Virus record (IMG/VR): IMGVR_UViG_3300034683_000092
Location: 1-64,000 of that record
From: a virus
Length of the DNA: 64,000 nt
Direction: 5' to 3' (one strand)
Shown one piece after another: positions 25,866 to 26,298 of this stretch. The notes below the pieces were generated by a model. The model was not told the DNA's origin. It worked only from the letters and a program-made list of their open reading frames with translations, and did not search any database. A program made the position numbers and the translations under genes. Position 1 is the first letter of the stretch, and each line of letters opens with the position of its first letter.

Positions 25866-26298
25866 ATAAAACTGCTTCTCTATATATAAAACACTTATGT
25901 GCACAACTACCCCCACCCAAATTAACCATATACATTTGTTATAAAAATAACAATCTATATATTGTTTATTTCCTTATTTTTGGGTAAAAGGAACCTACCT
26001 GAAAGTCTTACAACTCCCAGGCAATCCGCTCACGCTCCTATTGGATACGTATTTCTCACTTCGTATACGCTTATTCAGCTTAAACTTATAGGCGGCTCAT
26101 TCCACTTTTCTGACGTCTAGACCCGTTTATTATTATTAGTTTTCATCCTTAGTTATCTCTAGAGCGAATTTCCCTGTACCCTTTTCACAGCTTATGTGGC
26201 TCGCTAATCTAACGGAATTCTAGTGGAACATACAAGTCTATCATCCTTGTGATAATCCTTGCTAATCAATAGAAGATAAGCGTCAACTATTAATCAAG
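25866..26298 (-). ncRNA. Large structured non-coding RNA / groEL leader
   Basis: No ORF; many nested stems with G-U pairs specific to the minus strand; begins immediately after a promoter. Confidence 0.6.

Follow-up and report, generated by a model that had tools for sequence, protein, structure and literature searches.

The intergenic DNA upstream of groEL in a crAss-like phage almost certainly encodes a real structured RNA, a member of a family found in Steigviridae and their relatives. The phage is represented by the 96.6-kb IMG/VR virus record IMGVR_UViG_3300034683_000092, of which we analyzed the first 64 kb (64,000 nucleotides, hereafter the window), and the conserved unit is ~310 nt long, running on the minus strand from 26297 to ~25985, where it ends ~120 nt before the groEL ATG at 25865. 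An earlier, sequence-only reading of this DNA had described a highly structured RNA of ~430 nt at 25866–26298, transcribed from the first late promoter, and had offered it either as a candidate new large phage non-coding RNA (ncRNA) or as a thermosensor or regulatory leader coupling chaperonin synthesis to conditions. The first of these proposals is supported, as the RNA covaries, is strand-specific and promoter-proximal, and has no Rfam match; the proposed length has to be shortened, since only ~310 nt are conserved and the last 120 nt before groEL are variable. Taking the evidence together, we put at about even the chance that the RNA, whose family is uncatalogued, is a stable, separate molecule that acts in trans and has a terminator-like end.

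Conservation among close strains defines the element. The four-strain set consists of the window and three contigs (L007, L008 and L009, with 98% identical GroEL) obtained in a protein-anchored scan of metagenome contigs. In the four-way alignment 304 nt (26314–26011) have no variable column, and a single substitution at 26010, in the loop of the hairpin that we call P5, is followed by 54 more invariant bases (359 nt in total). The longest of the other invariant runs within 5 kb measures 97 nt. Over its first 650 nt groEL varies at 48 columns (7.4%), and strain pairs differ by 5–12% in the intergenic DNA that lies upstream of the promoter; by an arithmetic estimate, the chance of a given unchanged 304-nt run at the groEL rate is ~1e-10. 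The invariant block starts 6 nt upstream of the TATCTTTG promoter box and extends downstream, which is the pattern predicted for a transcript starting at that promoter. The least conserved part is the stretch adjoining the groEL ATG (25943–25866, 13 variable columns). Since nothing varies among the close strains, covariation could be read only from distant relatives.

No intermediate relatives of the lineage occur in IMG/VR, where portals are either 98–100% or ≤53% identical to that of the window. A blastn ('distant') search of the window region against GenBank phages and a tblastn search with the divergent neighbour ORF gave no match, three exact 18–20-mers, taken from the RNA of the window and from the GC-rich block upstream of it, retrieved nothing from IMG/VR, and groEL as an IMG/VR anchor found only 35%-identity relatives without a long leader. 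One 20-mer searched against GTDB genomes had a single hit, in a Latescibacterota metagenome-assembled genome, where ~1 chance match is expected from the size of the collection; this lone chance match argues against host-derived sequence. The four-strain profile, run against the 10 kb upstream of distant portals, matched in six loci, all six on the portal strand, 8–10 kb upstream of the portal and with the same profile segment. A shared 20-mer (GAACYAATAATATATAAACG) then retrieved 45 IMG/VR loci, and blastn with the relatives matched gaps without annotation in Kehishuvirus 'tikkala', bajarodcaudo virus 1, cr85_1 and cr106_1. The family thereby counts no fewer than 45 contigs in IMG/VR plus four crAss-like phages in GenBank; the RNA is unannotated in all of them, and the distant homologs are all on the strand of the structural operon. 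A first nhmmer iteration that included the promoter drifted to promoter-only hits, and the profile was rebuilt on the RNA body alone; this gave 57 hits, or 49 unique sequences, 36 of them at ≤97% identity.

A covariance model (R1) built from 20 distant relatives, none of the window's lineage, hit the window exactly once, at 26232–26095 on the minus strand, with 43.3 bits and an E-value of 3.3e-6 in a search of 64 kb on both strands (R1 E-values are rough, the calibration having been shortened). R1 found all 38 members tested, the window being the weakest-scoring of them. Two further family traits are present in the window. The family motif GAGAUAAC...AACUAAUAAUAUAUAAACG occurs as GAGAUAAC followed by AACUAAUAAUA-AUAAACG, with one base missing, and the promoter motif TTKS-N17-23-TAnnTTTG, which ends 0–90 nt before the core in 35 of the 38 members, here ends 69 nt before it on the structural-gene strand. 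The cultured phage crAss001 (L152, NC_049977), which was not scored by R1 or the profile, yet showed partial homology by blastn (E-values of 5e-14 to 1e-9 against a 1-kb subject), carries a variant at 628–1000, in the unannotated gap between Gp2 and Gp3: the promoter lies at 628–663 and the P2/P3 core of one subfamily at 837–895, and the AU-rich motif described below is missing. The parts of the window RNA, in 5' to 3' order and all on the minus strand, are as follows.

26301–26332, minus: Bacteroidetes-type promoter, read from the sequence (TTTG at 26332–26329, a 20-nt spacer, TATCTTTG at 26308–26301).
26233–26297, minus: 5' leader with two hairpins (helices 1 and 2 of the sequence-only reading); both helices are present, hairpin 1 is in the minimum free energy (MFE) fold, and the leader is invariant in the four strains.
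26095–26232, minus: core domain, a stack of P0, P1, P2 and P3; the sole R1 hit in the window, backed by the covariation counts.
26228–26222 with 26106–26100, minus: P0 of the core domain.
26214–26207 with 26122–26114, minus: P1 of the core domain.
26205–26201 with 26167–26163, minus: P2 of the core domain.
26198–26195 with 26189–26186, minus: P3 of the core domain.
26123–26162, minus: J2/1, the large conserved 3' strand of the internal loop, which includes GAGAUAAC; it has columns invariant across 36 sequences.
26146–26150, minus: 5' strand of the pseudoknot (AAGGA), pairing with UCCUU at 25992–25988.
26026–26095, minus: P4 region, a variable hairpin domain (helix set 4 of the sequence-only reading); the helices are present and the domain is longer than in relatives.
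25997–26024, minus: P5 hairpin (helix 5 of the sequence-only reading), 12–13 bp, the longest in the family and in the MFE fold.
25982–25996, minus: U-rich 3' tail AGGUUCCUUUUACCC (family consensus AGGUCUCUUUAUAU), which is also the 3' strand of the pseudoknot.
25943–25975, minus: downstream segment with AAGGAA at 25975–25970, an AT-rich hairpin (AACAAU/AUUGUU, at 25966–25943) and then UUUUU, read from the sequence.
25866–25942, minus: variable spacer to the groEL ATG, with four-strain variable columns and no second promoter motif.

We accept the fold because comparative evidence, rather than the helices of the sequence-only reading or folding energy, decides the matter. In the primary test, helices derived from one relative were counted on a structure-blind MAFFT alignment of 36 sequences, in which 71.8% of cells pair, compared with 54.6 ± 1.1% for shuffled partners and 38–47% in slid controls. 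Cells changed on both sides number 267 versus 125 in shuffles, and the covariation score is 0.474 versus 0.217 (shuffled) and 0.10–0.18 (slid), none of the 500 shuffles reaching the observed values. A model-fitted alignment, in which pairing rises to 90.9% of cells and double changes occur in 30 of 32 pairs, leans towards structure, and the structure-blind count was for this reason taken as primary. RNAalifold independently predicted P0, P1, P2 and P3 on a trimmed 20-sequence core; on a gappy 410-column alignment it predicted nothing. The clearest covariation is that of P2, which appears as CCCCAA/UUGGGG, CUUCCA/UGGAAG, GAUAGA/UCUAUC and GGCAC/GUGCC in relatives and as AGCGA/UCGCU in the window. 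For the pseudoknot, where an automated longest-complement search was noisy, the family versions include AAGAG/CUCUU, AGGAGU/ACUCCU, AAUAAGAGA/UCUCUUAUU and ACUAAGAGA/UCUCUUAGU, and the AAGGA/UCCUU of the window is a compensated version of AAGAG/CUCUU. The P5 stem before the tail averages 5.33 bp across the family compared with 4.16 bp in shuffles, a value reached by none of 200 shuffle sets, and is formed by 30 distinct arm pairs. Relatives carry a hairpin at the position equivalent to P4, and hairpin 1 of the 5' leader aligns with a 5' hairpin bearing a AUAGCAAGUA-like loop in a subset of relatives, of which it is a candidate equivalent. Within J2/1 lies a near-invariant AU-rich motif, AACUAAUAAUA(U)AUAAACG, at 26141–26124, and in all ~19 unpaired bases are invariant between phages whose portals are only ~50% identical.

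Measured against this family model, the helices proposed earlier fared unevenly. All 13 complementary segments that had been listed are present in their places and pair canonically or as G-U, and helix 5 (GCCTGGGAGT/ACTTTCAGGT) is the family-supported P5. Enforced as a whole, that helix model is 17 kcal/mol worse than the MFE fold and worse than the mean shuffle. From its nested third domain, TTCCACT/AGTGGAA survives as P0 and AGCGA/TCGCT as P2, whereas three other pairings fall away: for CCGTT/AACGG, the family has AAACG invariant and unpaired; in place of the register given for CTAGA/TCTAG, CGUUAGAU has GUCUA(G)ACG as its partner in the model; and for CTGT/ACAG, the family hairpin is CACA/UGUG. 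Nothing in the family corresponds to helix 6 (CTTTTACCCAAA/TTTGGGTGGGGG, with four U-G pairs), which moreover is in competition with the covarying pseudoknot. Helices 1 and 2 and helix set 4 may be specific to the lineage of the window.

Folding energies also divide the earlier description of the RNA as highly structured, which holds by family covariation but not by energy. The full 433 nt fold at z = -2.2 to -2.3, the conserved 309-nt core at z = -1.2 (26 of 200 shuffles being as good) and the central domain of the sequence-only reading at z = -0.6; that reading had named an energy no better than that of shuffles as grounds for giving it up, and by this measure the outcome would be borderline. 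The energy of the core, no better than that of shuffles, together with the presence of only four close strains, is what could be said for the view that the region has no function, the helices being due to chance and the strain identity to a recent recombination patch. We find this view scarcely credible, as the flanks are diverged on both sides in all strain pairs, homologs occur in phages with portals only ~50% identical, the covariation lies beyond 500 of 500 shuffles and all slid controls, and a model built without the lineage recognizes the window as a member.

The same evidence bears on whether selection acts on RNA or DNA. The sequence-only reading had argued for RNA-level selection, and the compensatory changes that keep helices, the many U-G pairs, which would be A-C on the other strand and favour a folded single strand, and the restriction of R1 hits to one strand all agree with it. 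They speak against a DNA-level or priming role at the strand switch, such as a replication origin, a primer transcript (as in T4 oriF or ColE1 RNA II) or a packaging site, as does the lack of iterons or repeats in the region, and we regard such a role as very unlikely. In its favour, the RNA lies exactly where the two transcription arms diverge and the GC skew changes sign. Another such point is that the record of DAC15 (L154, NC_055832) annotates an exact 1842-bp direct terminal repeat (1–1842) at the strand-switch genome end, so that a physical genome end there adjoins the equivalent of the RNA region. Furthermore, the T4 origins oriF and oriG likewise combine a middle promoter with a downstream element.

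The setting of the RNA was examined for what it might control. Three proteins of the window, the portal, the major head protein and the terminase, have matches in crAss-like phage families, the closest GenBank portals (50–53% identical) all being from Crassvirales, Steigviridae: cr111_1, cr108_1, IAS virus, DAC15 and Kolpuevirus. Leftward genes occupy 1.8–25.9 kb and include groEL, terminase, portal and head protein, and rightward genes begin at 26.7 kb, with two giant ORFs beyond 63.7 kb; the RNA heads a same-orientation transcription arm of at least 25 kb. The 814 nt from groEL to the first rightward gene (26680) contain no ORF longer than 35 aa, and on the minus strand of the stretch described earlier, which had been said to have no ORF, none exceeds 34 aa. 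Coding by way of a reassigned stop codon was considered and ruled out: all three stop codons occur in every minus-strand frame, and no single reassignment would open a frame. The promoter motif that had been recognized as TTTG-N20-TATCTTTG is indeed present at 26332–26301 (minus), but the label 'late' needs a qualifier, as this motif class is assigned to middle genes in phi14:2. The profile segment of the window promoter also matches the P108 site of phi14:2, just upstream of g108, a middle promoter mapped by primer extension and used by the host RNA polymerase (bioRxiv 10.1101/2020.03.07.982082).

The genes downstream of the RNA differ among relatives, being groEL, small ORFs or tRNA arrays, and mostly not groEL directly. 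Of the 21 loci that could be followed for ≥3 kb downstream, 16 carry tRNAs on the same strand within 6 kb (as many as 21), none carries any on the opposite strand, and five, the window included, have no tRNA within 6 kb. Because the downstream genes are so heterogeneous, we regard the RNA as a module heading the leftward arm rather than as a groEL element. The earlier suggestion of a groEL leader, and of a thermosensor coupling chaperonin synthesis to conditions, accordingly loses its footing, as most relatives lack groEL directly downstream, the conserved part ends ~120 nt before the ATG, and the stretch next to the ATG is variable. More broadly, a riboswitch-like sensor, thermosensors included, whose core would bind a small molecule or tRNA and set read-through into groEL or the tRNA arrays, appears very unlikely to us. 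A pseudoknotted core whose 3' strand is the terminator tail does have the typical layout of an aptamer with its expression platform, and the invariant unpaired bases could line a binding pocket; but the downstream genes share no function, the region adjacent to the groEL start is the least conserved, no alternative pairing is found family-wide, and there is no Rfam riboswitch, T-box or RNA thermometer match even at E ≤ 10. Specifically, neither an Rfam thermometer hit (ROSE, FourU) nor a conserved hairpin masking the ribosome-binding site or start codon was found for the region, and the varied downstream genes likewise fail to resemble those of a riboswitch or T-box.

In the trans-acting reading that we favour, the host RNA polymerase would start at the conserved strand-switch promoter, and many transcripts would end at the terminator-like P5 and tail. 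Tucking of the 3' end into the pseudoknot would yield a discrete, stable RNA. This RNA may act in trans, its conserved partner being a component of the host or the phage and probably belonging to the translation, tRNA or RNA-polymerase machinery; groEL in the window phage, and small ORFs and tRNA arrays in others, would be supplied by read-through. By its sequence pattern, P5 with the U-rich tail looks like an intrinsic terminator, and a terminator scan lists the stem 26024–25995 followed by GTTCCTTTTA. In several relatives (L066, L086, L049 and L058) another promoter of the class found ahead of the RNA follows shortly after it; from this and the terminator listing we judge that the RNA probably leaves the template mostly as a separate molecule. 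That ~19 unpaired bases have stayed unchanged between phages sharing only about half of their portal residues suggests that these bases touch a conserved partner, and hence action in trans.

Several observations weigh against this trans-acting reading. Besides the folding energy of the core, given above, the U run starts ~5 nt past P5 in most relatives, which is poor for an intrinsic terminator, and R1 and the profile found no scoring copy in phi14:2 (1–12000 and 90000–100418), cr111_1, IAS virus or DAC15. No second promoter motif lies between the RNA and groEL in the window phage, and the RNA is therefore physically the groEL leader there; the next copy of the promoter class, located by the profile via L007 and L008, is at ~23909–23957 (minus), after groEL and a 79-aa ORF and ahead of ORF 23897–23493, so that the first transcription unit would consist of the RNA, groEL and the 79-aa ORF. 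In addition, both ends given for the RNA, including the start near 26297, are predicted ones, and its abundance is presumed.

These observations bring in the chief competitor, a cis-acting leader that would act by processive antitermination, as HK022 put and EAR do, or by controlling elongation, processing or stability of the downstream transcript (tRNA arrays, groEL, terminase, portal). We consider it possible, if on the doubtful side. The RNA always lies directly behind the promoter and heads the long arm of at least 25 kb, the window phage has no other promoter motif before groEL, and P5 with its tail, followed by the second AT-rich hairpin with its U run, could be an attenuator. Moreover, in the window, L115, L112 and L109 a second copy of the J2/1 purine segment lies downstream and offers the tail an alternative partner; in the window this copy is AAGGAA at 25975–25970, which can take the place of J2/1, and the strain substitutions in 25943–25975 fall in the hairpin loop and U run. 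However, same-class promoters just downstream of the RNA in several relatives mean that much transcription would bypass it, and the alternative tail/downstream hairpin is not enriched family-wide (4.5 bp compared with 4.1 bp shuffled), which also led us to reject a pseudoknot/downstream-hairpin 'switch' as a family feature. Furthermore, known put and EAR elements are far smaller than an RNA of ~250–310 nt with a pseudoknot and long invariant single strands. HK022 put is a cis-acting RNA of ~70 nt and two stem-loops that works on the RNA polymerase, and no put model was among the Rfam hits; the lambda pR' leader (the '6S' transcript, which stops at tR') stays short unless the polymerase reads through the terminator, and has no conserved fold. 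Both resemble the window RNA as promoter-proximal phage RNAs heading a long late operon, but the window RNA is four times larger than put and pseudoknotted, has long invariant single strands, and has same-class promoters behind it in relatives.

As a more specific form of action in trans, we tentatively suggest a new class of RNA made in bulk from the first middle/late promoter, which might be a ribozyme, a homo-oligomer like ROOL and GOLLD, or a decoy working through its invariant AU-rich single strand. A decoy could target RNA polymerase, ribosomal protein S1 or the ribosome, a tRNA-targeting defence nuclease, or an RNase of Bacteroidota. The Rfam scan that the sequence-only reading had recommended found nothing in 25500–26900 with Rfam 15 even at E ≤ 10, and nothing on four canonical relatives at E ≤ 1. 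The models of ROOL, GOLLD, HEARO, OLE, raiA and other large Rfam bacterial ncRNAs found no match in the region or the relatives, and the lack of any RNase P, tmRNA, or group I or II signature that had been noted by eye was confirmed for the region with Rfam and ARAGORN (tmRNA, RNase P RNA, 6S RNA, group I/II introns). We found no description of the family in Rfam 15 or in the literature searched. Its nearest analogues in kind, without homology, appear to be ROOL (RF03087) and GOLLD (RF01998), which are large conserved structured RNAs borne by phages and prophages, often beside tRNA genes and of unknown function (PMC5737381), and which have been reported to form multimeric cages (bioRxiv 10.1101/2024.12.08.627333). 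The crAss RNA is likewise large, structured, phage-borne and often near same-strand tRNAs, but it is only ~250–310 nt in length compared with an average of 581 nt for ROOL and still more for GOLLD, has no Rfam sequence or structure match, and occurs in Bacteroidota-infecting crAss-like phages in a fixed position behind one promoter class at the strand switch. Long ncRNAs have also been described in phi14:2 (the g004–g005 and g005–g006 intergenic regions), where they are highly transcribed, near the strand switch and of undetermined function (bioRxiv 10.1101/2020.03.07.982082). These differ in lying on the early rightward arm and appearing at the earliest time point, and they have no homology to the window RNA by profile or model, the promoter class alone being shared. 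The T4 tRNA-cluster stable RNAs, 'species 1 and 2', are phage-encoded, of unknown function and located beside phage tRNA genes, but they belong to another phage group, are of another size, and show no evidence of homology.

Few viruses of the human and animal gut are as abundant as the crAss-like phages, whose host takeover and expression timing are poorly understood. A pseudoknotted RNA of 250–310 nt kept across genera behind the first host-type promoter of the structural arm, and in the window lineage more conserved than groEL, points by its conservation and fixed position to a central, unstudied step of the infection cycle. What had looked like a groEL leader is a family-wide module rather than a chaperonin regulator, and it enlarges by one family the small set of large, ornate RNAs of bacteria and phages that lack a known function. 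These ideas are directly testable, as a canonical copy is present in the cultured phage Kehishuvirus 'tikkala' (OQ198717, 92728–93027), whose host is Bacteroides cellulosilyticus, and crAss001 has a variant.

Our searches yielded several minor observations. Between the promoter and the first rightward gene lies a second invariant block (26520–26586, 67 nt), G+C-rich with CCCCC/GGGGG hairpins, which is identical in the four strains while its flanks vary; its folding z is not significant on either strand, and a terminator-like site at 26571–26588 (plus) overlaps it. The tRNA array behind the RNA in L086 includes, at 3873–3944, a tRNA with anticodon CUA (tRNA-Pyl by ARAGORN), a candidate amber suppressor. 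The top non-phage 'GroEL' hits (P0003–P0006, 599–701 aa) contain internal duplications of Bacteroides GroEL segments; we considered them as fused GroEL forms and rejected this, as the duplications make them look like assembly artefacts (misassembled cellular genes). The terminase large-subunit ORF (18031–20751, minus, 906 aa) also matches DnaC-like loader and primase PHROGs over its N-terminal half, a double match that suggests an inserted domain, an intein or a fusion. In the plus-strand gene block, a 104-nt tRNA-model match at 34010–34113 (32 bits, just above threshold and not called by ARAGORN) may be a tRNA with an insertion or intron, and the window's only group I intron is at 44685–44923 (plus; Rfam RF00028, 66 bits, E-value 1.4e-14), within the rightward genes.

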